Assembly (NCBI GenBank): GCA_025454815.1
Contig: JALONR010000007.1
Location: forward strand, 70,010 to 134,009
DNA length: 64,000 nucleotides
Direction: 5' to 3'
Source: Bacteroidales bacterium
GTDB lineage: Bacteria; Bacteroidota; Bacteroidia; Bacteroidales; VadinHA17
The position numbers were made by a program, and so were the translations under genes. Under the pieces are notes generated by a model, which worked only from the letters and a program-made list of their open reading frames with translations, searched no databases and was not told the DNA's origin. The number at the start of each line of letters is the position of its first letter. Position 1 is the stretch's first letter. This document shows, piece after piece, positions 8,401 through 58,671 of the stretch.

Positions 8401-8522
8401 CCGGATACTGATTAGTTCAGCGCGGGCATCAGTAATATCAGTCCCGTATCAATTAATTCAGCCCTGCAGCAAAAATATCAGCCTGGACATCAATAATACA
8501 GGTCCGGGCTTCAATCAGATCA
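8401..8522 (-). repeat. Degenerate ~40-nt tandem repeat (3 units), each unit starting with TGA; the first TGA is the stop codon of the C69 peptidase gene
   Basis: Minus-sense units are 8522-8481 (42 nt), 8480-8441 (40 nt) and 8440-8401 (40 nt). All begin 'TGAT' and share a '...GCTGAAyTAAT...' core. Hand alignment gives roughly two-thirds identity. Confidence 0.4.
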
Positions 8523-10142
8523 GAATCCCCTGCCAAACATCTGCCATAGTTCTGCCTTCAGCTCCTGCCAGCGGCTCATGGCTCCATGAGCAAATGCATT
8601 GGTATATTCTGTTACAGCCTTCCTGGCCTCATCTTTTTTACCCTCCTTTACCATAATTTTGACTCTCTCCTCGAGTGCCGGAAGTTCGGTCAGTGCTTTC
8701 TGTTCCATATCGGCAACAGCCGGTTCAATCAGTTTACGGCCCCGTTCCCAGTTGACTGTCGACAGCCTGTTGGCTTCGCGGAATGCCCAGATGGCTGCAT
8801 CCTCGCGGTAGCGGTGTTGTCCGCATATGCGGAAGCTTGGCGGCAGAGCCATGGTGCCCGAGAAGATTGGTACACGCGGACTCTGCCCCGGGTTGTCAAA
8901 CGAGAACCATGCCACGGCGCCTACCTCATCGGGCAGCCATGAGCGGCACTGGATCACGTGGGAATAGGAACAGCCCGTGATGGCAATCGTACGCTGCCTC
9001 TCTATCGTGCCTGGCTTCAGCTCGTTGATCAGGGTACGGATGTCTGCGTTCATCCAGATGTTTATTGCGGGCGACTTGACAGTCTCGCTGATCTCGTTTC
9101 CGGCTTCGTCCTTTTTCTTTACGGTGATCATCAGGTTCTTAGTCATGTCCCATTGGGTTCCCTCATAGGTCTCGCGGAAGAGAGCCATCACGTCACTTAC
9201 GGAAAGCTTTTTATCGGCCTTCACCGAGAAGGGAAGCTCTTCCATTTCCATGGTCAGGTTCAGTCCGGGTGCCAGTTTATTCAGCACATAGAACTCGCGG
9301 ATAGCATATGGTTTGCCGGTGCCGATCACCTTGTAGAATTTGAACGGCTCCCTGCCGTCCCAGTAACCCAGGTCCTTTGCCTTCTTGCGCAGGTCAGTGG
9401 AGGTCATGAAGTGATCGGCGTCCTTGAAATCAACATCTGAAATTCTTGGGATATTGGCTGCAATGCCAACGTGGTCATCAGGGATCCTCTGTGCCACCCA
9501 CAGTGACGATGGCTTGCCGGGCCCTGAGCCGGCTATCTCCAGCTGCCACACCTCCTTAGGGTCGGCTATCGTGATGCATTCGGCCATGTCACCGTAGCCG
9601 TACTGCTCAGCAAGCGAGCCGATCAGGGCTATTGCCTGGCGTGCCGTGGTGCAGCGCTGCAGCGCGATTTTCTCAAGTTCCTCAATAAGGAAGAGCCCAT
9701 CCTTGTTGATCAGTTCCTGCCTGCCGTAGATCGTGGTTTCGCCAATGGCAAGCTGCTTTTCGTTGAGACAGGGATAAGCGGTGCTTAGAAATGCGTATGT
9801 CTCCTCTACCTCAGGGATTTCGCCCTTGCGTGTCACGTTGGTCATATCCCAGGCTTCCTCGGTGTGCAACGTTCCCCAATAGACAGGGTGGACCGTATCA
9901 CGCTCAAACTTCATTGCCGGAACCACCTCCAGCCATGTACGGTACCTGCCGTCACAGGTGTGAGAAGTCATCACAGAACCGTCAGTGGAGGCCAGCCGAC
10001 CAACCATTATGCTGGTGCAGTTTTCGGCGTAGCCGGGTCCGTCAGGATCCGTATCCTTTTCCGGCTGTGAATAGGAAACAGGTGCAAAACTTAGCAACAG
10101 GACCGTCAGAGCGGCGGAGATGAATCGGTAAGATGGTTTCAT
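8520..10142 (-). CDS. C69-family dipeptidase (secreted)
   Basis: The track ORF extends to 10166 (TTG). The ATG at 10142 gives the signal peptide 'MKPSYRFISAALTVLLLSFAPVSYSQ'. The Ntn-type catalytic-Cys context 'NCTSIMVGRLASTDGSVMTSHTCDG' is typical of C69. Confidence 0.8.
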   Translation of the reverse strand: MKPSYRFISAALTVLLLSFAPVSYSQPEKDTDPDGPGYAENCTSIMVGRLASTDGSVMTSHTCDGRYRTWLEVVPAMKFERDTVHPVYWGTLHTEEAWDMTNVTRKGEIPEVEETYAFLSTAYPCLNEKQLAIGETTIYGRQELINKDGLFLIEELEKIALQRCTTARQAIALIGSLAEQYGYGDMAECITIADPKEVWQLEIAGSGPGKPSSLWVAQRIPDDHVGIAANIPRISDVDFKDADHFMTSTDLRKKAKDLGYWDGREPFKFYKVIGTGKPYAIREFYVLNKLAPGLNLTMEMEELPFSVKADKKLSVSDVMALFRETYEGTQWDMTKNLMITVKKKDEAGNEISETVKSPAINIWMNADIRTLINELKPGTIERQRTIAITGCSYSHVIQCRSWLPDEVGAVAWFSFDNPGQSPRVPIFSGTMALPPSFRICGQHRYREDAAIWAFREANRLSTVNWERGRKLIEPAVADMEQKALTELPALEERVKIMVKEGKKDEARKAVTEYTNAFAHGAMSRWQELKAELWQMFGRGF

Positions 10143-10414
10143 AGTTAAATAGTTACAGTACAACAATGATGGTCATAAAGGTCAAATCCGTTTATTGAAA
10201 CATAAGCTTATAAACCGGGCAGATTAACCGGTACAGCTCACAAAATGCCTGACCGGCTGTTTACCCATATGTCACAAAAATAGTCGGGTTGCCGTAACAA
10301 CCCGCCATAAAGATAATATTATGCAACATACAGGCGGTCTAAAGTGAATTGTATTACATATCATTTGGTAAGTTTCAAAATGTTTCTACCTTTCCTGCAA
10401 CAGAGACCCCCGTT

Positions 10415-12526
10415 ATGATCAATGCTAAATTATTGAATCCTAAAAGTATAGTCGTTGTTGGCGGTTCAGATGATGTCACCAAGGCCGGAGGCAAGGTACT
10501 AAAGAATCTTTTGGACTGCGGATTCCACGGCAATATCTATGTTGTCAATCCCAAAGCACCTGTTGTTCAGGGTCTGACAGCCCACGCAGATGTATCACTG
10601 CTCCCCCGTACAGACCTTGCAGTGATTGCCGTTGCCGCCCGCTACTGTCCGGGAATTGTCAGGACGCTGGCAACAGAGAAGGGGACAGGAGGATTTATTA
10701 TTCTCTCTGCCGGTTTCGGCGAGGAAGATGAAGAGGGAGCTGCCCTTGAAAAAGAGATAGTTGATATCATCAACAGCACCGGAGGCACACTCATCGGGCC
10801 TAATTGCATTGGCTTTCTGAATAATAATTATCACGGTGTCTTCACCGAGCCCATCCCCCGTCTCTCGATCAAAGGGATTGACTTTATTTCGGGCTCGGGG
10901 GCGACGGCGGTATTTATCCTTGAGACTGCCATTACCGGCGGACTCCCTTTTTCAAGCGTATGGTCTGTAGGGAACAGCGCCCAGACCGGCGTGGAGGATG
11001 TTCTGGAACATCTCGATAATACTTTTGACCCGCTGACCAGCTCACGGATCAAGCTTCTGTACATTGAAAATATTGCCGATCCGATGCGGTTCCTGAGGCA
11101 CTCGGCTTCGCTTATCAGAAAGGGGTGCAGGATTGCTGCCATCAAAGCCGGCTCGTCAGAAGCGGGTTCCAGGGCTGCTTCGTCTCATACCGGTGCTATG
11201 GCCTCCCCTGATTCGGCAGTCGATGCACTTCTGCGAAAGGCAGGAATCGTCAGGTGTTACAGCCGTGCCGACCTTGCTGCAGTGGCTGCATTGTTTACAT
11301 ATAAACCGCTAAAGGGTAAAAGAATAGCTATTGTAACCCATGCCGGAGGACCTGCCGTCATGCTTACAGATGCACTCAGCGAAGGAGGGATGGAGATACC
11401 CCGCCTGTCGGGACCTGCTGCAGACCGGCTTCTGGAAAAACTTTACCCCGGATCATCTGTGGCAAATCCCATTGATTTTCTGGCAACCGGAACTGCTGAA
11501 CAGCTGGGTCATATTCTTGACGCGTGTGAGAACGACTTTGACGAGGTGGATGCAATGGCAGTAATCTTCGGAAGTCCCGGGCTCTTCCCTGTAGATGATG
11601 TCTACAGCCTCCTTCATGACAAGATACGCAGTTGCCGTAAGCCGATATACCCGGTACTGCCTTCGGTGATAAATGTAAAAAGGGAAATAGCCGAATTTAT
11701 AGCTCATGGGAATGCAATATTCACTGACGAGGTGCTCTTCGGGAGGGCGCTATGCCGGGTCAATGCAACCCCTGCGCCGGCCGTGCCGGAGAGAATTGAG
11801 GATATCACCGCCGGATCAACTGGTTTGAACGGCGGCTACCCGCAACCGGACATAAGGGTGATCAGGGAGGTCATCGATGGGTCCCGGGATGGATACCTGC
11901 CACCGGAAAAAGTATCTGCTCTGCTGAGGGCTGCCGGCATAGAGACGGTTTCCGAGAGTGTTGTCACCTCGGCCGAAGCGGCCGCCAGGACTGCCGCAGC
12001 TATGGGCTACCCGGTGGTGATGAAGGTTGTGGGCCCTGTACATAAATCGGATATCGGTGGTGTGGCACTTAACATCATCAATGAGGAGAAGGTCAGGGAG
12101 GAGTTTGGACGAATGATGGCACTGCCGGAGGTTACCGGTATACTGATACAAAAGATGATCAGCGGGCGCGAACTATTCTGCGGCGCCACCCGCGAGGGCC
12201 GCTTCGGCCACATGGTCATGGCAGGTTTGGGCGGAATCTTTATTGAGGTATTCAGGGATGTGGCCAAGGCGCTGGTACCCGTCTCAGACAGTGAAGCCAG
12301 GTTAATGATCAGGTCTCTGAAGTCATACAAGATAATCAAGGGTGTCAGAGGTTCAGAAGGGGTCAACGAAGAGGGGTTTGCCAGGGTAATCACCTCCCTC
12401 TCGGACCTCCTTGCCGCTGCCCCCGAAATTGAGGAGATGGATATCAATCCGTTGCTGGGTACGGCTGACAGGATAGTGGCGGTGGATGCACGAATAAGAA
12501 TTCAGGCAATAGGCAAAGGGCAGTAG
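10415..12526 (+). CDS. ADP-forming acetyl/acyl-CoA synthetase (acetate--CoA ligase family, fused CoA-binding + ATP-grasp)
   Basis: The ATG at 10415 gives 'MINAKLLNPKSIVVVGGSDD', the family's usual N-terminus. It also has 'GPNCIGF', 'SSHTGAMASPD' and the C-terminal ATP-grasp segment 'GYPVVMKVVGPVHKSDIGGV'. Confidence 0.85.
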   Translation: MINAKLLNPKSIVVVGGSDDVTKAGGKVLKNLLDCGFHGNIYVVNPKAPVVQGLTAHADVSLLPRTDLAVIAVAARYCPGIVRTLATEKGTGGFIILSAGFGEEDEEGAALEKEIVDIINSTGGTLIGPNCIGFLNNNYHGVFTEPIPRLSIKGIDFISGSGATAVFILETAITGGLPFSSVWSVGNSAQTGVEDVLEHLDNTFDPLTSSRIKLLYIENIADPMRFLRHSASLIRKGCRIAAIKAGSSEAGSRAASSHTGAMASPDSAVDALLRKAGIVRCYSRADLAAVAALFTYKPLKGKRIAIVTHAGGPAVMLTDALSEGGMEIPRLSGPAADRLLEKLYPGSSVANPIDFLATGTAEQLGHILDACENDFDEVDAMAVIFGSPGLFPVDDVYSLLHDKIRSCRKPIYPVLPSVINVKREIAEFIAHGNAIFTDEVLFGRALCRVNATPAPAVPERIEDITAGSTGLNGGYPQPDIRVIREVIDGSRDGYLPPEKVSALLRAAGIETVSESVVTSAEAAARTAAAMGYPVVMKVVGPVHKSDIGGVALNIINEEKVREEFGRMMALPEVTGILIQKMISGRELFCGATREGRFGHMVMAGLGGIFIEVFRDVAKALVPVSDSEARLMIRSLKSYKIIKGVRGSEGVNEEGFARVITSLSDLLAAAPEIEEMDINPLLGTADRIVAVDARIRIQAIGKGQ

Positions 12527-12548: not shown

Positions 12549-13250
12549 ATGAAGCGTTCTGATATTATTTTCGTTCTCGTCTTTGTCGGGCTGTTTGTCC
12601 CGTTTTTTCTTTCTGACAGACTGTTTGATTTTTTCATCTGGTTCAGTTCCGACTGGGCATTTACTGCAAGCTTCATAAAGTTTGCCATTCTCGCCACGAT
12701 GGGAGAGATGCTCGGCAGCAGGATCCGCACCGGCATTTATCTTCCTGCGGGTCTTGCACTGCTTTACAGGGCTGTTGTATGGGGCTTCCTCGGCATGACC
12801 GTAAAGGCTGCCTTTATGATCTTTGGCGGCGGCACACCGCTTATTATGGAACACCTGGGTATGGAGAACCCGGCAGCAGTCATGGCCGGCCCGGTGACCG
12901 GCGCCAGGGTGTTGCTCGCCTTTGCCATCAGCACCTTCCTGAATATCTTTTATGCACCGGTTCTTATGGTTACCCACCGTATAAGTGACCTCCATATTGC
13001 CGCCGCGGCAGGAAACAGGCACAAACTGCTGTCGGTCCCCGATGTGAAAGGACTTCTCGCATCAATAGACTGGAACAGCATGTGGGGCATTGTGCTGAAA
13101 AGAAGCATCCCCCTGTTCTGGATACCGGCACAGACGGTCAACTTCCTCCTGCCTGATGAGTTCAGGATACTCGTTGCAGCCCTCTACAGCACCGTCCTTG
13201 GAGTGATACTGGCCCTGGCGTCGGGAGCAGGAAGGAGGCCTGAGGTCTGA
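12549..13250 (+). CDS. Integral membrane protein, Mpv17/PMP22-like
   Basis: Several hydrophobic segments are visible. The C-terminal 'FWIPAQTVNFLLPDEFRILVAALYSTVLGV' resembles the Mpv17/PMP22 signature W-x-P-x-Q-x-x-NF-x-x-P. The start is ambiguous (12537 or 12549). The last codons and the stop lie inside the TGAGGTC repeat. Confidence 0.55.
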   Translation: MKRSDIIFVLVFVGLFVPFFLSDRLFDFFIWFSSDWAFTASFIKFAILATMGEMLGSRIRTGIYLPAGLALLYRAVVWGFLGMTVKAAFMIFGGGTPLIMEHLGMENPAAVMAGPVTGARVLLAFAISTFLNIFYAPVLMVTHRISDLHIAAAAGNRHKLLSVPDVKGLLASIDWNSMWGIVLKRSIPLFWIPAQTVNFLLPDEFRILVAALYSTVLGVILALASGAGRRPEV

Positions 13251-13322
13251 GGTCTGAAGTCTGAGGTCTGAAGTCTGAGGTCTGAAGGTCTGAGGGTCTG
13301 AGGGTGTGAGGGTCTGAGGGTC
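13241..13322 (+). repeat. Heptamer-to-octamer microsatellite (TGAGGTC/TGAAGTC x6, then TGAGGGTC-type x5)
   Basis: Eleven contiguous units read directly. They start at 13241, 13248, 13255, 13262, 13269, 13276 (7 nt) and 13283, 13291, 13299, 13307, 13315 (8 nt). The TGA of unit 2 (13248-13250) is the stop codon of the upstream gene. Confidence 0.95.
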
Positions 13323-13450
13323 CCAATAAATTAAGAATTTCATATGGTTTCCAACCATGAGACCTTGCGATCTTTGGACTTTCAGACTATTATGAAATAT
13401 GACAAATAGCAGCTATCGGTCTCTTATAAATTTTTATCTTAGGGCCTGAG

Positions 13451-14831: not shown

Positions 14832-15059
14832 ATGGCAAAGATAAAAGGAGCAGTTGTTGTTGACCGCGAGCGGTGCAAGGGTTGCGAGGTGTGTGTGGTA
14901 ACCTGCCCTACAGAAACCCTGGCACTGGCAACGGAAGTGAATTCAAAGGGATATCATTACTGTTATCCGGCTAATCCTGAGGCATGCATTGGCTGTTCCA
15001 ATTGCGCAGTGGTATGTCCTGACGGTTGTATTACCGTTTATAAGGTGAAAATCGGATAA
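14832..15059 (+). CDS. 2-oxoacid:ferredoxin oxidoreductase delta subunit (2x[4Fe-4S] ferredoxin)
   Basis: 75 aa with two CxxCxxCxxxCP motifs: 'CKGCEVCVVTCP' and 'CIGCSNCAVVCP'. Confidence 0.85.
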   Translation: MAKIKGAVVVDRERCKGCEVCVVTCPTETLALATEVNSKGYHYCYPANPEACIGCSNCAVVCPDGCITVYKVKIG

Positions 15060-15172: not shown

Positions 15173-16240
15173 ATGGAAAAGGAACTGAGACTGATGAAAG
15201 GCAACGAAGCTGTAGCCGAGGCGGCTATACGCGCAGGTGCCGACGGTTATTTCGGGTATCCCATCACTCCGCAGAGCGAGATACTTGAATATCTTATGGA
15301 GGCCAACCCCCAGGCAACCACCGGGATGGTGGTACTCCAGGCGGAGAGCGAGGTGGCTGCCATCAATATGGTTTACGGAGGCGCTTCCTGCGGGAAGAAG
15401 GTCATGACATCATCCTCATCCCCCGGCATAAGCCTCAAGCAGGAGGGAATAACCTACATCGCAGGAGCCGAACTGCCGTGTCTTATTGTGAACGTGGTGC
15501 GCGGCGGCCCGGGACTGGGAACCATACAGCCGGCACAGAGCGACTACTTCCAGGCTACAAAGGGTGGAGGACACGGCGACTATCACCTCCTGGTCCTTGC
15601 CCCGGCGTCAGTACAGGAAATGGCTGACTTTGTCGAACTCGGATTTGACCTGGCATTCAAATACAGGAACCCGGTAATGATACTCTCTGATGGTGCCATC
15701 GGGCAGATGATGGAGAAGGTATGGCTCAAGCCGCAGAAGAAGAGATCGGAAGAGATCCTTCCCTGGGCAACCACGGGGAAACCGGCAACACGTGAACGCA
15801 ATATAATAACATCACTTGACCTCGATCCGGGCCGGCAGGAGCACTTCAACCTGAAGCTGATAGCCAAATACCGCGAGATGGAAGAGAAGGAGGTGCGCTT
15901 CGAGGAGTTCATGACCGATGACGCCGAATACATCTTCGTGGCATACGGCACAAGTGCAAGACTGTGCCAGAAGGCACTGCAGCTTGCAAGGGCCGAAGGG
16001 ATCAAGGCAGGGCTGCTCAGACCGATAACACTCTTCCCGTTCCCGAAGAAGAGACTCAATGAGCTCGCTGCCAGTGTGAAGGGAATGCTGGCAGTGGAGA
16101 TGAGCGCCGGACAGATGGTGGAGGACGTGATGCTCTCGGTATGCGGAAAAACAAGAGTAAGCCACTATGGACGAATGGGAGGGATGATCCCTACACCTGA
16201 AGAGGTTTTGGAAAACCTGAAATCATTTATTAAAGGATAA
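15173..16240 (+). CDS. 2-oxoacid:ferredoxin oxidoreductase alpha subunit
   Basis: 355 aa with 'GNEAVAEAAIRAGADGYFGYPITPQSEI', typical of the KorA/VorB/PorA family. Substrate cannot be assigned from sequence alone. Confidence 0.85.
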   Translation: MEKELRLMKGNEAVAEAAIRAGADGYFGYPITPQSEILEYLMEANPQATTGMVVLQAESEVAAINMVYGGASCGKKVMTSSSSPGISLKQEGITYIAGAELPCLIVNVVRGGPGLGTIQPAQSDYFQATKGGGHGDYHLLVLAPASVQEMADFVELGFDLAFKYRNPVMILSDGAIGQMMEKVWLKPQKKRSEEILPWATTGKPATRERNIITSLDLDPGRQEHFNLKLIAKYREMEEKEVRFEEFMTDDAEYIFVAYGTSARLCQKALQLARAEGIKAGLLRPITLFPFPKKRLNELAASVKGMLAVEMSAGQMVEDVMLSVCGKTRVSHYGRMGGMIPTPEEVLENLKSFIKG

Positions 16241-16245
16241 GAGAA

Positions 16246-17114: not shown

Positions 17115-17657
17115 ATGACAGAAGAAATTATAATAGCAGGTTTTGGCGGACAGGGTGTGCTCTCGATGGGAAAGATAATGGCCTATTCAGGCATGATGCA
17201 GGATATGGAGGTTAGCTGGATGCCTTCGTACGGCCCCGAGATGAGGGGCGGCACCGCAAACGTCAACGTGATACTAAGTGATGAACGCATCAGTTCCCCT
17301 ATACTCAGGAGCTTCGATACGGCAATCATCCTCAACCAGCAGAGCATGGACAAGTTCGAGAAATCGGTCAAGCCGGGAGGAACCCTTATCTATGACGGCA
17401 ACGGCATCACCAGGCATCCCGAACGCAAGGACATAACCGTCTACCGTATTGATGCGGCAGAAGAGGCTTCAAAGCTGAAAATGCAGAAGATGTTCAACAT
17501 GTTCGTCCTGGGAGGTTTTATGAAAGTCAAACCCATTCTGAAAACCGAATATGTTCTCAAGGGTCTGAAAAAATCCCTTCCCGAACGGTACCACAATCTC
17601 ATCCCCCTGAACGAGAAGGCCATTGAAAGGGGAATGGAGATTATCAATAAGGTCTGA
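17115..17657 (+). CDS. 2-oxoacid:ferredoxin oxidoreductase gamma subunit
   Basis: 180 aa with 'IIIAGFGGQGVLSMGKI...YGPEMRGG', the gamma-subunit signature. Confidence 0.85.
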   Translation: MTEEIIIAGFGGQGVLSMGKIMAYSGMMQDMEVSWMPSYGPEMRGGTANVNVILSDERISSPILRSFDTAIILNQQSMDKFEKSVKPGGTLIYDGNGITRHPERKDITVYRIDAAEEASKLKMQKMFNMFVLGGFMKVKPILKTEYVLKGLKKSLPERYHNLIPLNEKAIERGMEIINKV

Positions 17658-17832
17658 ATATAAAGTCAGCAGTCAGCAGGTTGACATCATAATATTGCAG
17701 CTGAAAAGTTTAAAGCAGATTTTGAGATACTGGCGGGTTCAATTACGAAGTTGCCGACCTGTAGCATGCCCTTCTGGCCGGCCCCTGACCCGGCATCCAG
17801 GGATTAATGAGGAACATGCGTAAATAATTTGG

Positions 17833-17896: not shown

Positions 17897-19114
17897 ATGA
17901 TAAAACGTAATCTCTATCTGAATCAGCTTCTCAGGTTCACGGACAAACCCCTGATTAAGGTAATAACCGGGATAAGGCGTGGCGGAAAATCCGTTATGCT
18001 GGCTCTTCTGCATGATAACCTGATTGAGAGGGGTATAGAGGAAGACAGAATAATCCATCTCAGCCTTGACAGCCTTGAATATGCCGCTCTGAACAGCGCT
18101 GAACCTCTTTACCGTTATGTGAAGGAAAGAACCGGAGCCGGGAAACGATATTATCTTCTGCTTGATGAGATTCAGGAGGTTGCCCAGTGGGAAAAGGCTG
18201 TGAATTCATTATTTACGGAATTGAACGCAGACATATATATTTCAGGCTCCAATTCACGCCTTCTCTCATCTGAACTTTCTACATATCTGGCAGGAAGGTA
18301 TGTTGAACTCAATCTCTTTACCCTTTCATTTGCAGAATACCTTCAGTTCAGAAATCAACAGAAAGAAACCAGGATTGATAATATCAGGAATGAGTTTGCC
18401 GGATTTCTGAGATCTGGTGGCTTCCCGGTCCTGCACGTGGCAGACTATGAGGATGATACTGCCGGTAAGGTGGTGTTTGATATTTACTCCTCCATTATTC
18501 TTCGTGATGTGGTTCAACGGAATAGGATACGCGACATTGAACTTCTCGAACGTGTGGTCAGGTATTTATTTGATAATATCGGAAACCGGTTTTCTGCTGC
18601 AAATGTTGCTGCCTATTTCAAAAGTCAGCAACGGAAGGTTGACCTGAATACGGTGTATAATTACATCGACGCTCTGGAGAGCGCCTATATAATATACCGT
18701 GTTCCCAGGTATGATATCAAGGGTAAGGAGATACTAAAGACACTTGAGAAATGCTATGTGGGCGATCATGGTCTCGTTTATTCAGTAATGGGCCACAGGG
18801 ACAGGTTGATTTCAGGGGTGCTGGAAAATATAGTATTGCTTGAACTGAAGCGAAGGGGTTATGACGTCTTTACAGGAAGATCGGGTGAGAAAGAGATAGA
18901 TTTTATAGCAAAGAAGGGAGAGAACACAATTTATGTGCAGGTCACTTTCCGGATGGATGCTCAGTCAACTGTCGACAGGGAATTCAATCCCCTGATGGAT
19001 ATACCCGATCATTATCCGAAATTCGTTGTATCGATGGATGATGTTTGGCGTGATAATTATGAAGGGATCAGACACATGCATATTGCCGACTTTCTTCTTT
19101 CTGACTTTTACTAG
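17897..19114 (+). CDS. AAA+ ATPase with C-terminal PD-(D/E)xK-like domain (COG1373 / AAA_14 + DUF4143 type)
   Basis: 405 aa with Walker A 'GIRRGGKS', Walker B 'YLLLDEIQ' and the C-terminal nuclease-like segment 'EKEIDFIAKKGENTIYVQV'. By eye the gene is more AT-rich than its neighbours. Confidence 0.75.
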   Translation: MIKRNLYLNQLLRFTDKPLIKVITGIRRGGKSVMLALLHDNLIERGIEEDRIIHLSLDSLEYAALNSAEPLYRYVKERTGAGKRYYLLLDEIQEVAQWEKAVNSLFTELNADIYISGSNSRLLSSELSTYLAGRYVELNLFTLSFAEYLQFRNQQKETRIDNIRNEFAGFLRSGGFPVLHVADYEDDTAGKVVFDIYSSIILRDVVQRNRIRDIELLERVVRYLFDNIGNRFSAANVAAYFKSQQRKVDLNTVYNYIDALESAYIIYRVPRYDIKGKEILKTLEKCYVGDHGLVYSVMGHRDRLISGVLENIVLLELKRRGYDVFTGRSGEKEIDFIAKKGENTIYVQVTFRMDAQSTVDREFNPLMDIPDHYPKFVVSMDDVWRDNYEGIRHMHIADFLLSDFY

Positions 19115-19152: not shown

Positions 19153-19263
19153 CTGACTGCCCACTGCCGACTGGTACTGCCGACTGCCGACTGGTACTGC
19201 CTACTGCCGACTGGTACTGCCTACTGCCGACTGGTACTGCCTACTGCCGACTGGTACTGCCTA
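19153..19263 (-). repeat. 20-nt tandem repeat (about 5.5 units) whose first unit starts with the nadD stop codon
   Basis: The minus-sense unit is TAGGCAGTACCAGTCGGCAG. Four consecutive units start with TAG (plus-strand CTA at 19261, 19241, 19221, 19201). Then come a TCG variant (19183) and a partial TGG variant (19163). The plus-strand units at 19201-19260 are three perfect copies. Confidence 0.95.
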
Positions 19264-19854
19264 CTCATAAAAATGCATCTCCCTGATATACTTCCAGACG
19301 GAAGCAGGGACAAACCACGAGACATCCTTTCCTTCTCGGATGGCGCTGCGGATGAAGGTGCCGGAAATCTCCATTACCGGGGCGTCAATCTCCTGTATTG
19401 TGGCCATGGCAAGTATCTCCTGCAGCCGCTTGCTGCCCTTCCTTCCGGGGTAAAGCCTGGGATAAACCACAATCGGATACTGTTTCACCAGCATCTCTGC
19501 ATTCTTCCACTTGTGGAGAGTGGTGAGATTATCCTCACCCATTATCAGTGTGAACCGGCGTGACGGGTACTTTTCTGTCAGATGAGCCAGGGTGTCAATT
19601 GTGTAGGATGGCCTGGGAAGGGTGAACTCTATGTCCGAGGCCCTGAACCTCGGATCATCACCTATTGCCAGCTGGGTCATGTAAAACCGGTCGCGCTCAC
19701 TCAGCAATGTCTCCTTTACCTTCAGAGGATTATGCGGACTGACAACAAACCATACCTCCTTCAGCGGTGAGTATTCGGTGATGTAGTTGGCTATGGCCAT
19801 GTGGCCAATATGCACCGGGTTGAATGATCCGAAGAATAGTCCTGTCTCAGTCAT
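19261..19854 (-). CDS. nadD: Nicotinate-nucleotide adenylyltransferase
   Basis: 197 aa with 'GLFFGSFNPVHIGH' and 'ISGTFIRSAI'. It overlaps gmk by 4 nt. Confidence 0.9.
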   Translation of the reverse strand: MTETGLFFGSFNPVHIGHMAIANYITEYSPLKEVWFVVSPHNPLKVKETLLSERDRFYMTQLAIGDDPRFRASDIEFTLPRPSYTIDTLAHLTEKYPSRRFTLIMGEDNLTTLHKWKNAEMLVKQYPIVVYPRLYPGRKGSKRLQEILAMATIQEIDAPVMEISGTFIRSAIREGKDVSWFVPASVWKYIREMHFYE

Positions 19855-20436: not shown

Positions 20437-21312
20437 TTAAAGGATATTGAGGGTCAGTTCCTTGATCTTCTCCAGTTCATCCTTCATCATTACCACCAGC
20501 TTCTGCATGGAGGCATCGTTGGCTTTGGAGCCGATGGTATTGATCTCGCGTCCCATCTCCTGCGATATGAAGTTGAGCATCTTGCCATGGGTCCCTTCAG
20601 CTTTCATCGTCTCCAGGAAGTAGTCACAGTGTTTCCGCAGGCGAACCTTTTCCTCATTTATATCGAGTTTTTCCAGGTAGAAAATCAGCTCCTGTTCGAA
20701 CCGGTTTTTATCAACTTTTTCCGATCCCACTGCCTCCTTCAGCGTGGCATTCAGTTTCTCCCGCATCCTTGTGATACGATCTCCTTCCACTGCTCCGAGG
20801 TTGTCAAGATACCCGATTATGGAGGCGACCGATTTCGAGAGATCCTTTTCCATCGCCTTTCCCTCCTCCAGCCTGTAGAGGTCAGTCATCGCCAGTGCCT
20901 CATCCGTGAGTCCGGAGATCCTGTTCCACTCTTCGTCAGAGAGCTCCGCCTTCTCGGTACGGAGGGTCTCGGGCAGGCGCATCACTATTCCCAGCAGCCC
21001 GGCATCGTCATTGATTCCAAGTTCACCACTGATTTCCTTCAGCTGGCTGAAGTAACTCTTTACATTGTATTTGTTGATCACCGGTACCTGCTCGCTGTCC
21101 ATGGTGTCAAAGTTTATCGACAGGTCGATTTTCCCTCTCTCGAGCTTCCTCATCACTATGTTCCGGATATCAAGTTCCTTCTCCTTGCAGATCCATGGAA
21201 GCCTGGTGTTGATATCTGCCTGCTTGCTGTTGAGTGATTTTATCTCAACGGTGATCTTTCTCTGTGGCGTCTCCAGCATGGCTTTGCCATAGCCGGTCAT
21301 CGATCTTATCAT
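20437..21312 (-). CDS. yicC: YicC-family stress-induced protein
   Basis: The track ORF extends to 21405. The ATG at 21312 gives the canonical YicC N-terminus 'MIRSMTGYGKA'. The C-terminal segment 'EMGREINTIGSKAND' is also present. Confidence 0.85.
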   Translation of the reverse strand: MIRSMTGYGKAMLETPQRKITVEIKSLNSKQADINTRLPWICKEKELDIRNIVMRKLERGKIDLSINFDTMDSEQVPVINKYNVKSYFSQLKEISGELGINDDAGLLGIVMRLPETLRTEKAELSDEEWNRISGLTDEALAMTDLYRLEEGKAMEKDLSKSVASIIGYLDNLGAVEGDRITRMREKLNATLKEAVGSEKVDKNRFEQELIFYLEKLDINEEKVRLRKHCDYFLETMKAEGTHGKMLNFISQEMGREINTIGSKANDASMQKLVVMMKDELEKIKELTLNIL

Positions 21313-21375: not shown

Positions 21376-21560
21376 GCCGTGAAGCGCCTGATGGCGACAA
21401 TTCATGCCTCAGCCCGGCAGGTCAGGTTACACGGTGCAGTGTCTTATGAAGACAATTCATGCCTCAGCCCGGCAGGTCAGGCTCCACGGTGAAGTGCCTG
21501 ATGGCGACAATTCATACCTCAGCCCAGCAGGTCAAGCTCCACGGTGAAGTGTCTCATGAT
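21376..21560 (-). repeat. 55-nt tandem repeat (about 3.35 units) made of the last 13 codons, the stop codon and 13 nt of 3' flank of the tryptophanase-family gene
   Basis: Plus-strand units are 21376-21430, 21431-21485 and 21486-21540, plus 20 nt of a fourth (21541-21560, unique coding continuation). The period is exactly 55. Hand-counted mismatches are 8/55, 8/55 and 10/55 between unit pairs. Each full unit keeps the TGA. Confidence 0.95.
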
Positions 21561-22895
21561 TGGTGCTTCCCATTTTATGGCAAGACCCCTTCTGACGGTT
21601 TCCCTTCTCTCCCAGACATTCTGCACTGCCGCTGCAACATAATCCATGTGGTTGTCAGTGTAAACCCTTCTCGGTATTGCCAGCCTGACAAGCTCCAGCT
21701 CCGGGTACCTGTTCTCACGGGTAACAGGGTCACGGTCGGCCATCAGGGTGCCAATCTCGGTGCCCCGTATTCCTCCCTCGAGGTATATCTCAACCGCCAG
21801 TCGCTGTGCCGGGAATTCCGATGCCGGTATCTGCGGATAGAACTTGCCTGCATCAATAAAGATGGCATGGCCGCCGATGGGCATCTGTACCGGGATGCCT
21901 GACCTGTGAAGCTTTTCTCCCAGCCGTGCCACCTGGCCGATGCGGGCCCCCAGGTAATCAGATTCGGTACCCTCATACAACCCCTGTGCCAGCGCGTTCA
22001 TGTCGCGGCCTGACATACCGCCGTAGGTGATGTAACCCTCGAACATGATGTTGAAGGTTGATGCCTTCCGGAAGAGCTCGCGGTCCTTCATGCCGATGAA
22101 TCCGCCAATGTTGACTATGGCATCCTTCTTTGAGCTCATGGTCATGGCGTCAGCATATGAGAACATCTCACGGGTGATCTCCCTGATGGGTTTGTCAGCA
22201 TAACCCGCTTCACGCGTTTTGATGAAGTAGGCATTCTCTGCAAAACGGGCCGAGTCAATGACAAGCAGAACGCCGTACCTGTCAGCCAGACTGCGCACTC
22301 CGCGCAGGTTTGCCATGCTCACCGGCTGTCCACCTGCGGTGTTGTTGGTGACTGTCATCACGATGCAACCGAGCTTTTCACGCGGTGTCTCCTTCAGTAC
22401 CTGCTCCAGGTGTCCCAGGTCGGCATTACCCTTAAAGGGGTCATTATTGGTGATATCCCTTGCCCATGAAACGGTGCAGTCAACAGCTGTCGCTTTTCTG
22501 AATTCTATATGCCCCTTGGTAGTGTCAAAATGGGCGTTGCCCGGGATAACGTCACCCTCTTTTACCAGGACGGAAAAGAGTACATTTTCGGCGGCCCTTC
22601 CCTGGTGGGTGGGGAGAAAGTATTCGAACCCGGTTATGTCACGGATGGCCTCCTTCAGTTTGAAGTATGAGGATGCGCCGGCGTAGCTCTCGTCGCCGGT
22701 CATTATGGCCCCCCACTGCCTGTCGCTCATGGCGCCCGTGCCGGAGTCGGTCAGCAGGTCAATGAATACCTGTTCTGACTTCAGGTTGAACATGTTGTAT
22801 GAGGCGATTTTCATCCATTCTTCCCGCTCCTGGCGGGTGCTCTGCCGGATGGCCTCAATTGTCTTTATCTTGTAAGGTTCACAATATGGTAACAT
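21519..22895 (-). CDS. tnaA: Beta-eliminating lyase: tryptophanase / tyrosine phenol-lyase family
   Basis: The track ORF extends to 23090. The ATG at 22895 gives 'MLPYCEPYKIKTIE', the family's usual N-terminus, and a 458-aa product. PLP-lysine context 'MSSKKDAIVNIGGF' is present. Trp versus Tyr specificity cannot be decided by eye. Confidence 0.85.
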   Translation of the reverse strand: MLPYCEPYKIKTIEAIRQSTRQEREEWMKIASYNMFNLKSEQVFIDLLTDSGTGAMSDRQWGAIMTGDESYAGASSYFKLKEAIRDITGFEYFLPTHQGRAAENVLFSVLVKEGDVIPGNAHFDTTKGHIEFRKATAVDCTVSWARDITNNDPFKGNADLGHLEQVLKETPREKLGCIVMTVTNNTAGGQPVSMANLRGVRSLADRYGVLLVIDSARFAENAYFIKTREAGYADKPIREITREMFSYADAMTMSSKKDAIVNIGGFIGMKDRELFRKASTFNIMFEGYITYGGMSGRDMNALAQGLYEGTESDYLGARIGQVARLGEKLHRSGIPVQMPIGGHAIFIDAGKFYPQIPASEFPAQRLAVEIYLEGGIRGTEIGTLMADRDPVTRENRYPELELVRLAIPRRVYTDNHMDYVAAAVQNVWERRETVRRGLAIKWEAPIMRHFTVELDLLG

Positions 22896-22936
22896 TGGAT
22901 TTGCGATTTGCGATGTGAGATGAGCGATTTGAGATT
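22896..22936 (-). repeat. Heptamer tandem repeat (about 5.7 units, consensus ATCGCAA) ending at the tnaA start codon
   Basis: Minus sense reads ATCTCAA ATCGCTC ATCTCAC ATCGCAA ATCGCAA ATCCA|ATG. The plus strand at 22896-22935 reads TGGAT TTGCGAT TTGCGAT GTGAGAT GAGCGAT TTGAGAT. Confidence 0.9.
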
Positions 22937-23247
22937 TTGCCAGCACTACTGCCTTCCCGGTCCGACAGCTGGCGGAACGGGATTGATCCGCCTTCTGCGT
23001 CGTCGTTTCAAATTGCCTGTTGCCTTTCGGCATCTGCAATCTATAGATTAATAACAGAAAGTGAACCAATAATAGCGATGGAGCATGCAACTCCTGAACT
23101 CAGAATGCGTCCCTGTTCTTGATGTTACGGAAAATCAGCTTCCTGTTTATGACCCTGGATTGGCGGGAATTCATGGAAACGGCTATTTTTGCAAATATAA
23201 CTTTTTTACGTTTGGGGTACAATCCGGAATTCTTTAAACATTACGAA

Positions 23248-45813: not shown

Positions 45814-47637
45814 ATGAAGAGCATAAGGATCCTTTTGCAGTATCTCAGGCCCTATAAATGGCTGGCCGTCCAGAATATGGGCTACAACATCCTCAGTGCC
45901 TTCTTTGCCCTTTTTACATACACACTTATAGTACCCTTCCTCCAGATCCTGTTCAAGAGGGTCGAAATGGTTCCTGATCCCGGGCCGTTCAGCCTGTCGG
46001 CTTCATACCTTAAGGACTGGGCCAACTGGTTCTTTTCATCATCCATAGAAAGGTACGGTGAGATGAGGACCCTGCTTATGGTGGTGATAGTCTTTGCGGT
46101 AGCCAGTTTCATAAAGAACCTGCTGGTCTTCCTGGCCAACAACTGTATGGCCAGCCTGAGGGCCGGAACGGTAAGGGATGTCAGGAACCGCATTTATGCC
46201 AAGATACTTAAGCTTCCCCTTTCTTATTTCTCCGAGGCCCGGAAAGGTGACCTGATGACCAGGGTCTCAAATGATGTCCAGGAAATTGAGATGTCGGTGA
46301 TGGCTTCATTATCCATGATGTTTCGTGATCCTTTTACCATAATAATCTTCGTGGTCTACCTGTTTGTCACCAGTCCGCAGCTGACAATCTTCGCCCTTCT
46401 TATGCTGCCACTAAGTGCCTGGGCCATAGCACGGATCAGCCGCAGCCTGAAAACCAGGTCTTTCATTGGTCAGAAGGCGCTGGGACGGCTTCTTTCAGTT
46501 CTGGAGGAGACCCTTACCGGACTCCGCATCATCAAGGGGTTCAATGCCGAGGAGAAGATGAGAAGGCATTTTAGTATTGCAAATGAGAAATATACGCAAA
46601 CATTCAGAAGGGTGGTTCGAAAGGCCTATATGGCACATCCGGTCAGTGAGTTCCTCTCAACTGTAGTACTGCTGATTGTGATCTATTATGGTGGTTTCCT
46701 GGCACTGAAAGGCACCGGTAACATGTCACCTGACAGACTGATAGCATTTGTGGTGGTATTCTCCCAGATCATCCAGCCTGCAAAAGCTATCTCCAGCGCA
46801 TGGTTCAGTATTCAGAAGGGGATGGCGTCAATTGACCGGATCAATGAGGTGTTCGACGCCGGTGAGACCATAACCGAAAAACCTGATGCGGTCAGACTAA
46901 CCGGGTTCAGGGAGAGCATCGAGTTTAGGAATGTCTGGTTCGCCTATAATCATGAACCGGTGCTGAAGGATGTCTCGCTCACCATCAGGAAGGGGCAGAC
47001 GATAGCAGTTGTGGGACGCTCAGGAGGCGGCAAGTCGACTCTGGTTGACCTGATACCCCGTTTCATCGATCCTGACAGGGGGAAGGTGCTTATTGACGGC
47101 ATTGATCTGCGTGACGTAAACTTAAAGGACCTCAGACAACTGATGGGAATAGTCAGCCAGCAGGCAATACTTTTCAATGATACCTTTTATAATAATATAT
47201 CCTTTTCCCTTGACGGGGAAGCCGAAGCTGAGAATGTTGAGAGGGCTGCCTCGATAGCCAATGCACACGAATTCATAAAGGAATCACCCGAAGGGTACCA
47301 GGCGACCGTGGGTGAGGGAGGCAATAAGCTCAGCGGAGGACAGCGTCAGCGCATAAGCATAGCCAGGGCTGTCATGGCCAACCCGCCTATACTCATCCTT
47401 GATGAAGCCACTTCGGCACTTGACTCCGAATCTGAACGGTTGGTGCAGGATGCCATGCTGAAGCTGATGGAGAACCGGACCTCGGTAATTATTGCTCACA
47501 GGCTGTCGACGATACAGCATGCTGACCTCATTGTGGTTGTGGAGGAGGGGAGGGTTGCCGAGTGCGGCACCCACGAGGAACTGATCAGGAACCCTGCCGG
47601 CATCTATCGGAAGCTGTATGAGATGCAGACCTTCTAG
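45814..47637 (+). CDS. ABC transporter, fused permease/ATPase (MsbA-like exporter)
   Basis: 607 aa. An N-terminal 6-TM domain is followed by Walker A 'GRSGGGKST', signature 'LSGGQRQR' and Walker B 'ILILDEATS'. Confidence 0.88.
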   Translation: MKSIRILLQYLRPYKWLAVQNMGYNILSAFFALFTYTLIVPFLQILFKRVEMVPDPGPFSLSASYLKDWANWFFSSSIERYGEMRTLLMVVIVFAVASFIKNLLVFLANNCMASLRAGTVRDVRNRIYAKILKLPLSYFSEARKGDLMTRVSNDVQEIEMSVMASLSMMFRDPFTIIIFVVYLFVTSPQLTIFALLMLPLSAWAIARISRSLKTRSFIGQKALGRLLSVLEETLTGLRIIKGFNAEEKMRRHFSIANEKYTQTFRRVVRKAYMAHPVSEFLSTVVLLIVIYYGGFLALKGTGNMSPDRLIAFVVVFSQIIQPAKAISSAWFSIQKGMASIDRINEVFDAGETITEKPDAVRLTGFRESIEFRNVWFAYNHEPVLKDVSLTIRKGQTIAVVGRSGGGKSTLVDLIPRFIDPDRGKVLIDGIDLRDVNLKDLRQLMGIVSQQAILFNDTFYNNISFSLDGEAEAENVERAASIANAHEFIKESPEGYQATVGEGGNKLSGGQRQRISIARAVMANPPILILDEATSALDSESERLVQDAMLKLMENRTSVIIAHRLSTIQHADLIVVVEEGRVAECGTHEELIRNPAGIYRKLYEMQTF

Positions 47638-47781
47638 GATTGTCGATCGTCGATCTTCCCAGCAGGGGATAAAGAATTGCATATCCGTCGCGTCCCGCAG
47701 AGCACATTCTGTCACCGCAACGTGAAACAAATTTTCCCGGAATTTGTTACCTTCGTGAATATCCAGAATAAAGAAACCAAC

Positions 47782-49369: not shown

Positions 49370-49456
49370 CGGAGAAAGAGGGATTCGAACCCCCGGTCCA
49401 GTCGCCCGGACAACGGTTTTCAAGACCGCCGCAATCGACCACTCTGCCATTTCTCC
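49370..49456 (-). tRNA. tRNA-Ser (anticodon UGA), class II with long variable arm
   Basis: The minus-sense sequence is GGAGAAATGGCAGAGTGGTCGATTGCGGCGGTCTTGAAAACCGTTGTCCGGGCGACTGGACCGGGGGTTCGAATCCCTCTTTCTCCG. The acceptor stem is GGAGAAA/TTTCTCC, the anticodon loop is CTTGAAA, and the T-loop is GGTTCGAATCC. CCA is not encoded. Confidence 0.93.
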
Positions 49457-56209: not shown

Positions 56210-56307
56210 CTTATTCAGTAGAATTTAGTCACTGGCACAGGCGGCCGGTGCCAATGGTCTTCTGAATGAACTGCCGGGCCTGGTGCAAGTCAGATAATTT
56301 ACCAACA

Positions 56308-56338: not shown

Positions 56339-56344
56339 CATGTA

Positions 56345-56896: not shown

Positions 56897-56912
56897 TGCA
56901 GGGTAAGGCTGA

Positions 56913-57488
56913 TCAATAGTTCTGGGCGTATACCTCGCTGTAGTTGAAGGGATGAAGGCATGCCGGGCAGTTCTTCAGCGGTTTCGTCCCGAAGTGCACA
57001 TAACCGCACTTCCTGCAATACCAGAAGACCTTCTCGTCACGCTCGAAAACCTTGTTGCCCATCACGCTCTCAAGCAGCTTCCTGTAACGCTCCTCATGCA
57101 CCTTCTCTGCGGCAGAGATAGCCTTGAAGCAGGTTGCCACCTCCTTGAATCCCTCTTCTTCGGCAACCTTTGCAAATTCCGGATAAAGCTCAGCCCACTC
57201 TTCATGCTCGCCGGCTGCTGCGGCCTCCAGGTTCTCACTTGTGGTAGAGGTTTTGCCTGCCGGGTATGCAGCTGTGATCTCAACCATTCCTCCTTCAAGG
57301 TAGCCGAAGAAACGCTTGGCATGCTGCTGCTCCTGCATTGCCGTCTCAAGAAATATGGCGGCAATCTGCTCATAGCCCTCTTCCTTTGCAACCTTGGCTG
57401 CAAATTCATAACGGTTCTTTGCCTGTGATTCACCGGCAAATGCCTTAAGAAGATTCTTCTCCGTACGGGTTCCTTTTATTCCTTTCAT
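56913..57488 (-). CDS. rbr: Rubrerythrin
   Basis: 191 aa with 'GTRTEKNLLKAFAGESQA', diiron ExxH motifs and a C-terminal rubredoxin-like 'CRKCGY...CPAC'. Confidence 0.92.
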   Translation of the reverse strand: MKGIKGTRTEKNLLKAFAGESQAKNRYEFAAKVAKEEGYEQIAAIFLETAMQEQQHAKRFFGYLEGGMVEITAAYPAGKTSTTSENLEAAAAGEHEEWAELYPEFAKVAEEEGFKEVATCFKAISAAEKVHEERYRKLLESVMGNKVFERDEKVFWYCRKCGYVHFGTKPLKNCPACLHPFNYSEVYAQNY

Positions 57489-57590
57489 TTCTCTGTTTTT
57501 TTGGTTGGTTTAATTGACAGGCCTTAAAAATAAATAAATTTTGGCTACTTTCAGGAGTCGTTTATCACTCAATTAAACATTCCGTAAATC

Positions 57591-58499
57591 ATGAAAAGAA
57601 TATCATTTGCCATCGTAGCGGTACTTGTGGTTGCCTTCCAGGCCTGTCAGACCCGGGGAAACGAGTATCACCTGTATTACCTTGGAGGACAGTCAAATAT
57701 GGACGGTTACGGTCTCACGGCGGATCTGCCGGCCAGCCTTGCAGGCGATATGCAGGGTGTCATGATCTACCATGGCAACACCTCTGCAGACAATACACCT
57801 GTTGACGGTCGGGGCATCTGGAGCACCCTCCGTCCCGGGCACGGCGCGGGCTTCAAAAGTGACGGAACCACCAACCTGTACTCTGACAGGTTCGGGGTTG
57901 AACTCTCCTTCGCTGAAAAAATGAAGGAACTTTTCCCTGATGAAAAGATCGCAATAATAAAGTATTCGAGGGGAGGTACCTCAATTGACACTGCAGCTGC
58001 CGGTGGTGCAGGTGCATGGCTGCCAGGGTACACAGGGGGCAATGCCGTAAACCAGTATGATCATTTCCTGTCCACCGTTAAGGGAGCCCTGGCTGCAAAG
58101 GACATCGACGGCGACGGAAAGAAAGACCGGCTTTTACCGTCGGGGATTTTATGGATGCAGGGGGAGAGCGATGCCAACAATGACTATGCCACCTCGATTT
58201 ACAAGGAGAACCTTGCAATGCTGATTGACAGTATCCGGACTGTCTTTTCGGCACCCGATATGCCTGTGGCCATTGGCCGTATTTCAGATTCCCGCAATGA
58301 TGCTGACAGCCTTGTGTGGACATGGGGTGATGCAGTCAGGGAGGCACAGGCGAAGTATGTTGCCGAAGACGGTAAAGCTGTACTTGTGACTTCAACTGAC
58401 AACTACGGTTACAGTGATCCATGGCATTATGACAGCGAAGGCTATATTGACCTCGGAAGGAAATTCGCCGAGGCGATTGCAGCCATCAGGCAGCGGTGA
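57591..58499 (+). CDS. Sialate O-acetylesterase-like (DUF303/SGNH-type) esterase, secreted
   Basis: 302 aa with a signal peptide, a catalytic-Ser block 'YYLGGQSNMDGYG' and 'ILWMQGESD'. Confidence 0.75.
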   Translation: MKRISFAIVAVLVVAFQACQTRGNEYHLYYLGGQSNMDGYGLTADLPASLAGDMQGVMIYHGNTSADNTPVDGRGIWSTLRPGHGAGFKSDGTTNLYSDRFGVELSFAEKMKELFPDEKIAIIKYSRGGTSIDTAAAGGAGAWLPGYTGGNAVNQYDHFLSTVKGALAAKDIDGDGKKDRLLPSGILWMQGESDANNDYATSIYKENLAMLIDSIRTVFSAPDMPVAIGRISDSRNDADSLVWTWGDAVREAQAKYVAEDGKAVLVTSTDNYGYSDPWHYDSEGYIDLGRKFAEAIAAIRQR

Positions 58500-58546
58500 T
58501 TCATTATCCGGGGGAACAATAGTCAGCAGGAGTTGCTGCTGATTCA

Positions 58547-58671
58547 GAATCCGGAAGAGGCAATGGCCAGCCTTGGATGCCGCTGCATGATCCGGCAGAC
58601 TCAATGGCCAGCCTTGGATGCCGCTGCATGATCCGGCAGAATCAATTGCCAGCCTTGGAGGCTGCTAATCC
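58547..58671 (-). repeat. 41-nt tandem repeat (about 3.3 units) whose gene-proximal partial unit covers the plsY stop codon
   Basis: Plus-strand units 58561-58601 and 58602-58642 differ at 2 positions by hand count. A partial divergent unit 58643-58671 (CAATTGCCAGCCTTGGAGGCTGCTAATCC) includes the CTA stop (58665-58667). A unit-end-like fragment lies at 58547-58560. Confidence 0.9.

Follow-up and report, generated by a model that had tools for sequence, protein, structure and literature searches.

The window analyzed here, a 64,000-nt stretch of a metagenomic contig from an uncultured Bacteroidales bacterium (contig JALONR010000007.1, positions 70,010–134,009), contains short tandem-repeat arrays that abut the ends of housekeeping or metabolic genes, namely those for NadD, PlsY, TnaA, a membrane protein and an ADP-forming acyl-CoA-synthetase-like (ACS-like) protein. 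Comparison with related loci revealed that arrays of this kind are enriched at translation boundaries, chiefly at stop codons, and that they are best explained as a clade-wide, previously described habit, and not as a new process specific to this genome. The account that we favour, with somewhat better than even confidence, is that simple-sequence repeats made by slippage are filtered by selection throughout the clade.

For the comparison, two independent sets of related Bacteroidia loci were used (about 2.1 Mb together): 80 genome loci around the YicC gene (set 1; 1.29 Mb) and 80 metagenome loci around the PlsY gene (set 2; 0.81 Mb). Arrays were located with Tandem Repeats Finder (TRF), and open reading frames (ORFs) were called by a simple longest-ORF rule with a 90-aa cut-off, by which stops are exact and starts approximate. 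The test revealed that 32 of the 94 arrays of set 1 lie no more than 2 nt from a stop codon (8.1 ± 2.1 expected), as do 13 of the 41 arrays of set 2 (2.6 ± 1.2 expected). When only one array per nearest-gene family was counted (70 sites), about 24 were found near stops versus 5.1 expected (p ~4 × 10−10). At start codons, there was little or no enrichment. An earlier reading of the window, made from its letters alone (the sequence-only reading), had suspected that arrays are enriched at translation boundaries, and both locus sets, also after the collapse of orthologous sites, bear this out, chiefly for stops.

Counted per base, arrays are most frequent in convergent spacers and least frequent in divergent, promoter-bearing ones, which make up 28% of the intergenic bases of set 1 and hold only 7 of its 94 arrays. 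After subtraction of the array, the remaining spacer is of normal length. Among the non-genic arrays heptamers predominate: set 1 contains 28 arrays with a period of 7 nt, 15 of 8 nt, 13 of 14 nt and 8 of 16 nt, periods of 6, 9 and 10 nt being rare, and set 2 contains ten arrays of 7 nt and eight of 14 nt. This predominance matches the slippage account of Mrazek et al. (2007), in which, according to the summary in PMC4679880, heptamers are the commonest prokaryotic long simple-sequence repeat and are ascribed to polymerase slippage. One array is much longer than the others, a high-identity array of 5.8 copies of a 73-nt unit in L009 (17741–18165; TRF score 783), which has an internal CCCCTGAAGGGG palindrome and lies 1 nt from a stop.

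The density of arrays is 62 per Mb in the window, 68 in close Bacteroidia loci and 94 in distant ones. The nearest relative in the GTDB set is "Bacteroidetes bacterium YS1.bin4" (YicC identity, 92%), and the next-nearest genomes carry the labels uncultured Rikenella or Bacteroidales. A genome-specific process, as proposed by the sequence-only reading, is contradicted by these data: the density in the window is no higher than in relatives, and the same orthologous sites hold arrays in many genomes. The arrays are therefore a property of the clade and not of this genome.

The reading frame separates arrays within genes from those outside them. Periods that are multiples of 3 were found for 47 of 65 arrays within ORFs as compared with 21 of 152 outside (p = 7 × 10−17). 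Of the 12 arrays of set 1 that are out of frame inside a called ORF, 11 are close to one of its ends: eight no more than 162 nt from the 3′ end and three no more than 96 nt from the 5′ end, where called ends are over-extended by the first-ATG rule (shown for tnaA and YicC); the single exception sits in the middle of an ORF. Set 2 has six out-of-frame arrays of this kind, several of which are hundreds of nucleotides away from either called end. Stop triplets occur in the sense direction in 28 of 41 stop-adjacent units versus 15 of 41 in antisense, an excess that would be expected if units had been copied from stop-spanning segments or if stop-bearing arrays set the ends of ORFs. The remaining 13 of 41 units contain no sense stop at all, e.g., (AGTTGGG)27 and (GGCTCAG)15, which speaks against the arrays being all-frame translation insulators as a general rule. 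Among the stops adjoining arrays, TAG accounts for 32%; its share among all genes called is 17% (chi-square p = 0.0065; both sets, orthologous sites counted separately).

In the account favoured here, the 7/8-nt arrays, including the one with a 20-nt higher-order unit, would be long simple-sequence repeats, and the 41- and 55-nt arrays of the window would be two local duplications of the minisatellite type. According to the standard model, both kinds would originate by replication slippage or by unequal exchange at short homologies. Arrays would then persist only where an out-of-frame change of length is harmless, and the tolerant zone in this compact genome would reach from the end of protein constraint up to the next promoter or terminator. 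A duplication spanning a stop would leave the first copy and the protein intact, and many units would in this way come to hold a stop together with the last codons of the gene. An ORF that enters an array with a stop-bearing unit, and with a period that is not a multiple of 3, would end within three units, so that the array would supply the stop; arrays without sense stops would be read through as variable C-terminal tails. The selection step is supported by the comparisons with related loci. With regard to the proposal that arrays are nucleated at stops, the direction of causation seems to be mostly the reverse, with arrays including or supplying the stop in tnaA, gene 12549–13250, the ACS-like gene and PlsY.

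Of six boundary arrays claimed for the window, five were found on re-examination (starting at 13235, 19156, 21379, 22898 and 58549), four of them at the 3′ ends of genes. The stop and start positions assigned to them proved to be correct when checked on the sequence, and, as had been said, their periods are never multiples of 3. Under uniform placement within each spacer, a null that disregards promoters and terminators, all five adjacencies would occur together with a probability of ~6 × 10−7. Stop triplets in all three frames are present, as claimed, on the sense strand of the adjoining gene in the 7-, 20-, 41- and 55-nt arrays; this is trivial arithmetic, since the unit contains a stop and the period is indivisible by 3. 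The sixth claimed array, with a unit of about 40 nt (8403–8523, between the stop of the C69 dipeptidase gene at 8520–8522 and the ATG of HydE at 8368–8370, both on the minus strand), has no statistical support and is an eroded remnant at best. In that region, TRF returned nothing at a score of ≥30, a repeat search revealed just three 16-nt cores at a spacing of 40–42 nt (identity, 75–81%), and ungapped autocorrelation was not above that of shuffles (p = 0.17). The arrays at 13235–13322, 22898–22937 and 19156–19265 consist of head-to-tail units within the 5–11 nt that define long simple sequence repeats, and pattern counts are far higher than in shuffled sequence.

The array at 13235–13322 (plus strand) is built of heptamers and octamers of the (A/G)GTCTGA type (TRF period 7/8, 11.6 copies) and codes for the last five codons and the TGA stop of the membrane-protein gene 12549–13250, the TGA (13248–13250) falling in its second unit. 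The same heptamer is found at the same gene end in L005 and L035, where the array-encoded tails differ (RRPEV*, RSEGPKV*, etc.), and the L006 homologue terminates earlier, without an array. These comparisons indicate that the array supplies the stop of the gene. The distal, octameric part of the array holds the sole canonical G-quadruplex motif (G3N1–7 × 4) of the whole window (13294–13320, plus), on the sense strand of the upstream gene; the same scan found no GGG tracts in the other arrays of the window. Downstream lies a degenerate inverted partner of the array (13354–13387, plus; 75–80% complementarity). The fold of the two is weak (z = −1.8, with 11 of 200 shuffles equally good), and their RNA could form a long imperfect hairpin before the promoter/leader block of the aminotransferase gene. 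This block, a stretch of about 50 nt (ATATGACAAATAGCAGC.ATCG.TCTCTTATAAATTT.TATCTT) upstream of the aminotransferase ATG at 13385–13450, is conserved in L005 and L035 and is presumably a promoter or leader; the remainder of the upstream spacer is array-derived.

A smaller array of the same kind, AGGCAAT AGGCAAA GGGCAGT AG (12504–12526, plus), makes up the last seven codons and the TAG of the ACS-like gene (10415–12526), which encodes a CoA-binding/ATP-grasp protein and whose Pfam ATP-grasp_5 match stops at residue 696 of 703. At the end of the corresponding gene, L035 has a run of about 12 heptamer units without sense stops that is read through as a long tail, and L005 has a 21-nt array translated as a longer tail.

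At the NadD boundary, the array occupies 19156–19265 (minus strand) and is described by TRF either as 5.5 copies of a 20-nt unit (97% matches) or as 16.4 copies of period 7. In the sense of NadD, the unit reads GCAGTAC CAGTCG GCAGTAG, i.e., 7 + 6 + 7 nt (7 + 7 + 6 on the plus strand). The array begins at, and includes, the TAG of NadD (19261–19263, minus), which falls in the proximal unit, and the NadD profile match extends to the final residue; the stop of the convergent AAA_14/DUF4143 gene is 41 nt away from the array. At the same site, L035 has (GCAGTAG)n, and further relatives, L004 among them, have other units. In L005 (12053–12111) and L006 (12057–12122), the spacer between NadD and its convergent neighbor is taken up entirely by two heptamer arrays, (TTTGCGA)n in forward and (TCGCAAA)n in inverted orientation, with a run of A/T between them; together they make a long hairpin, in which each array adjoins the stop of its own gene. 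In L035, G-rich-sense arrays are present at both stops of the convergent spacer on the NadD side. The AAA_14/DUF4143 ATPase gene of the window (17897–19114, plus) sits between the genes for 2-oxoacid:ferredoxin oxidoreductase (POR) subunits and NadD, and it is missing at this place from L005, L006 and L035, in which NadD directly faces the POR gamma-subunit gene. The gene is a lineage-specific insertion beside the 20-nt array.

The 3′ end of tnaA carries the 55-nt array (21379–21559, minus), for which TRF reports 3.0 copies at 21396–21559 and, in the matching contig of the Joint Genome Institute (JGI), 3.3 copies from 21379. Its unit comprises the last 13 codons of tnaA (IMRHFTVELDLLG), the TGA and 13 further nucleotides; the TGA itself (21519–21521, minus) is within the proximal copy, and the distal copies are decaying duplicates, that is, pseudo-3′ ends of tnaA. 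The TnaA profile match reaches within three residues of the stop. Nine relatives keep the C-terminal region of TnaA, all of them without the 55-nt array and three with a TAA stop: the C-terminus ...WEAPIMRHFTVELDLLG* is conserved in L004, L005 and L035, and the ...WEAPIMRHFTVEL... core is kept in the six loci L169–L174, with variation in the last few residues. The array is a young tandem duplication across the tnaA stop and therefore leaves the TnaA protein untouched. In L170–L174, a TAnnTTTG box for yicC, which we take to be the Bacteroidetes promoter consensus, lies about 10 nt past the tnaA stop, and the tolerant zone there would therefore be only a few bases long.

At the other end of the gene, a heptamer array of the sense CAAATCG/AATCGCA type (22898–22937, minus; TRF period 7, 5.7 copies, score 45) ends 2 nt upstream of the tnaA ATG (22893–22895, minus). 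Its lag-7 autocorrelation is 0.60 (shuffle p = 0.0005), and the leader RNA is predicted to be unstructured (−0.9 kcal/mol; z = +1.7). A heptamer-periodic, AAT-rich leader adjoins the tnaA ATG in 9 of 11 genomes, including L004, L005, L006, L035, L170, L172, L173 and L174. No heptamer leader was found before the ATG in L169 and L171; the leader is therefore dispensable. Of the five arrays, only this one could modulate expression in the way that contingency-locus repeats do. The longest yicC and tnaA ORFs (minus, starts at 21405 and 23090) run upstream into or through the arrays, and profile matches place the starts at 21312 and 22895; arrays can thus mislead start prediction by gene callers. 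In L006, a long-read metagenome-assembled genome, the tnaA frame is apparently interrupted (the ORF 8750–9961 is in a different frame from the start at 8581), which reflects either a sequencing indel or a pseudogene.

The 41-nt array (58549–58666, minus; TRF, 2.9 copies) starts at the stop of PlsY, with whose TAG (58665–58667, minus) its end shares 2 nt. The junction between units (GGATCATGCAGC) is similar by eye to the gene end (GGATTAGCAGC), and the duplicated unit therefore appears to have spanned the stop. A homologous array of two 44-nt copies stands right after the same TAG in L089 (90% identity), and no array was found after the PlsY stop in more distant relatives. A terminator-like hairpin (TCAGCAGCAACTCCTGCTGA with a T-rich tail; 58523–58542, minus), predicted by consensus scan only, lies just downstream in the PlsY sense, which would place the array between the stop and the likely end of the transcript. 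A BLAST search with the 41- and 55-nt units, which covered 64 kb of this genome (the window) and every related locus, returned no match outside the arrays themselves except the coding end of tnaA in L035.

Several findings weigh against the proposed combination of slippage and selection. The fourfold to fivefold excess of stop adjacency over uniform placement is overstated, because that null ignores functional elements. Start positions from the simple ORF caller are unreliable. The only copy-number difference seen between strains, 2.5 versus 5.5 copies of the 20-nt unit in an independent NCBI assembly (L002; flanks 99.87% identical), could be a short-read assembly collapse, and slippage as such is inferred. 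A pure filter does not predict a strand skew, and the stop-adjacent arrays of set 1 are G-rich on the sense strand of the adjoining gene (mean skew +0.35; 31 positive versus 6 negative). By gene family there are 17 positive and 5 negative, against a background of −0.01 in 3′ flanks; set 2 gives +0.24 (11 versus 5), and both sets combined 42 versus 11. The excess survives masking of the stop triplets (G 89 versus C 55), so that its origin as a by-product of stop triplets explains a part only. In convergent spacers, 21 of 22 skewed arrays adjoin the stop whose sense strand is the G-rich strand. Arrays also recur, with unrelated units, in many genomes directly behind the stops of YicC and NadD, the window itself having none after YicC, and this orthologous recurrence, the tnaA leader included, spans genomes with 72–78% YicC identity, which is long persistence for neutral bacterial DNA. 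Finally, the AATCGCA heptamer is present at at least seven unlinked sites in close relatives.

Two simple causes of the skew are disfavoured. A filter that avoids Rho-dependent termination does not fit, as co-directional spacers hold nearly equal numbers of G-rich-sense and C-rich-sense arrays (25 versus 24) and it is in convergent spacers, in which termination would do no harm, that the rule holds most strongly. A replication-strand cause is at odds with the opposite G-rich strands of two arrays that lie 6 kb apart (13235 and 19156). GCAGTNN doublets were also seen at several sites; single-linkage clustering of heptamer units was too permissive for wider families, random units giving half of the observed edges, and only the AATCGCA family is robust. 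Orthologous arrays vary widely in copy number between species.

Among other explanations, the one that survives best, although we judge it unlikely, is that the 7/8-nt arrays are selected cis-elements of transcripts: G-rich tracts in 3′ untranslated regions and between cistrons, and unstructured A/C-rich leaders upstream of starts. After stops, they might serve as platforms to which proteins bind, as spacers resistant to Rho or as one half of a terminator hairpin, and before starts, as leaders that set translation initiation in a phylum without Shine–Dalgarno pairing. This would agree with the sense-strand rule for G, which is the same in Xanthomonas and Nostoc (PMC4692102), with the persistence of arrays at orthologous sites while their units turn over, and with the scattered AATCGCA family. 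It would also suit the tnaA leader, which is retained in most genomes while the surrounding non-coding sequence is not visibly alignable, and the hairpins that inverted array pairs make between convergent genes of L005 and L006, and weakly at 13278–13387; moreover, regulator binding was proposed for start-proximal heptamers by MacGregor 2015 (PMC4679880). On the other hand, the units are highly diverse and share no motif, and individual arrays are dispensable, being missing in the closest relatives (the leader in L169 and L171; the window after YicC) or made of different units (NadD in L004). The even split in co-directional spacers is unfavourable as well, and transcriptome data showed no regulatory effect in Rehm et al. 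(PMC4692102). No array matched Rfam, for which the sole hit in the window was a tRNA (49370–49456, minus). RNA folding of the arrays revealed no unusual structure, and intrinsic terminators in the window are as numerous as in shuffles, with only the hairpin after the 41-nt array fitting.

The narrower proposition that selection maintains the stop-adjacent, G-rich-sense 7/8-nt arrays and the tnaA leader across Bacteroidia as transcript-level elements is likewise doubtful in our view. Such elements could act as platforms for RNA- or single-stranded-DNA-binding factors, as Rho-resistant or terminator-forming 3′ tracts and as Shine–Dalgarno-independent initiation leaders. If this were true, the rule in Xanthomonas and Nostoc, too, would stem from a function that is general and so far undescribed, or from a mutational mechanism coupled to transcription.

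A mechanism of the latter kind, coupled to transcription or translation and raised as a possibility by the sequence-only reading, seems improbable here. It supposes that G-rich nascent RNA past the stop forms R-loops that stall replication, and that slippage then extends arrays from the stop. The anchoring at stops, the sense G excess and the depletion in divergent spacers would all be accounted for. However, an abutment within 0–2 nt is tighter than would be expected from a ribosome footprint, the tnaA and PlsY arrays appear to have begun as duplicated coding sequence upstream of the stop, other arrays lie within the translated tail, and the 41- and 55-nt arrays are almost without GC skew.

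It is highly improbable that the arrays belong to a mobile or dispersed repeat family that targets gene boundaries, in the manner of mycobacterial interspersed repetitive units (MIRUs), repetitive extragenic palindromes or miniature inverted-repeat transposable elements. For MIRUs, insertion at start codons with coupling of the reading frames is known (PMC12548453), and some heptamer families here occupy unlinked loci, but the 41- and 55-nt units are each confined to a single locus, the longer of them clearly comes from tnaA itself, heptamer units vary from site to site, and neither sequence reading nor a repeat search revealed terminal inverted repeats or target duplications. An origin in assembly or polishing has a next to negligible probability. 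In its favour, short-read Logan contigs (L003, L085, L087 and L088) end within the 20-, 55-, 7- and 41-nt arrays, the 20-nt array is shorter in L002, and an N run stands beside a heptamer array in L035 (~15260–15360). Against it, the same arrays are present in a near-identical JGI contig (99.985% identity) and in a metagenome assembly made independently (NCBI), whose strain differs by 0.5% (99.5% identity; copy number of the 41-nt array unchanged in L086), and homologous arrays occur in many other genomes.

As for the surroundings of the arrays, the flanking genes, identified with NCBIfam and Pfam profiles, include those for HydE, C69 dipeptidase, the ACS-like protein and the conserved membrane protein. 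Others are the genes for the aminotransferase, POR subunits, AAA_14/DUF4143 ATPase, NadD, Gmk, YicC, TnaA, a SASA-family esterase and PlsY, and one for DUF3078, which is annotated in the nearly identical JGI contig. In the 375-nt "spacer" before the POR alpha subunit, a 75-aa ORF with two CxxCxxCxxxCP motifs (14832–15059, plus), missed by the 90-aa cut-off, probably encodes a ferredoxin-type delta subunit. Two minor arrays are also present: AGTCAGC in 2.3 copies (17664–17679, plus; TRF), 6 nt past the TGA of the POR gamma-subunit gene (17115–17657), and GATTGTC GATCGTC GATC (47638–47655, plus; below the TRF threshold), which adjoins the TAG (47635–47637) of an ABC-transporter gene (45814–47637).

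In practical terms, arrays of this kind can create stop codons and variable C-terminal tails, and they fragment short-read assemblies. They would matter more if the G excess, the orthologous recurrence, the recurring heptamers and the tnaA leader reflect function or transcription-coupled mutation; the role of heptamer repeats in bacteria has been open since the 1990s, and the phylum now offers cultivable, genetically tractable members for testing it.

The statement that no described system generates stop-anchored arrays does not hold, as precedents are found in Rehm et al. 2015 (PMC4692102) and MacGregor 2015 (PMC4679880). According to the former, the GGGAATC/GGGGAYT heptamers of Xanthomonas and Nostoc lie very near or overlap stops with their G-rich strand on the coding strand, are rare between divergent ORFs and occupy sites shared by related species with varying length and sequence, and no function was identified for them (PMC4692102). 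The arrays described here resemble these repeats in being heptameric and mostly non-coding, in their strong tendency to overlap a stop or to lie within 50 bp of it with the G-rich strand as coding strand, in their scarcity between divergent ORFs and in occupying the same sites in relatives with varying length and sequence. They differ in the phylum (Bacteroidota) and in having many unrelated 7/8-nt units instead of a single consensus, with G-quadruplex potential in one array of the window only (13294–13320) and no evident preference for four units. In MacGregor 2015 (PMC4679880), TAACTGA heptamers are reported from Beggiatoaceae, Cyanobacteria and five Bacteroidetes and overlap stops "necessarily", since stops occur in all frames. 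As with these, arrays here adjoin starts (the tnaA leader), some overlap upstream stops, and ribosome-binding sites are rare nearby; unlike here, TAACTGA is one heptamer used genome-wide and is mostly start-proximal. Tandem doublets of GGGAATC, GGGGACT, GGGGATT and TAACTGA are lacking in the window and the 174 loci searched.

The cyanobacterial short tandemly repeated repetitive (STRR) heptamers are, as suggested earlier, a fair analogue, with a few heptamer families in tandem at many intergenic sites, and differ in unit sequence and phylum. Doublets of the units that we took to represent STRR1–3 (CCCCAGT, TTGGTCA and CAACAGT) were likewise absent from the window and the 174 loci. Since the specific known heptamers are absent here, the arrays are the same kind of repeat outside those sequence families. 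Like MIRU variable-number tandem repeats, the longer arrays have tandem units of the 40–100 bp class at gene junctions, respect the frames of neighbors and vary in copy number; they differ from MIRUs, which are dispersed, seem to be mobile and insert at start codons (PMC12548453), in that the unit of each (41 or 55 nt) is unique and was duplicated locally from the 3′ end of the gene itself. All of the arrays are head-to-tail without spacers and thus do not have the layout of CRISPR. Long simple sequence repeats (units of 5–11 nt) are a descriptive class and not a system; among them, according to the summary of Mrazek et al. in PMC4679880, heptamers are commonest, and coding regions are kept free of units whose length is indivisible by 3, as they are here. 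The arrays represent a Bacteroidales instance of a phenomenon already known in three other phyla, and their value is mainly cautionary and descriptive.

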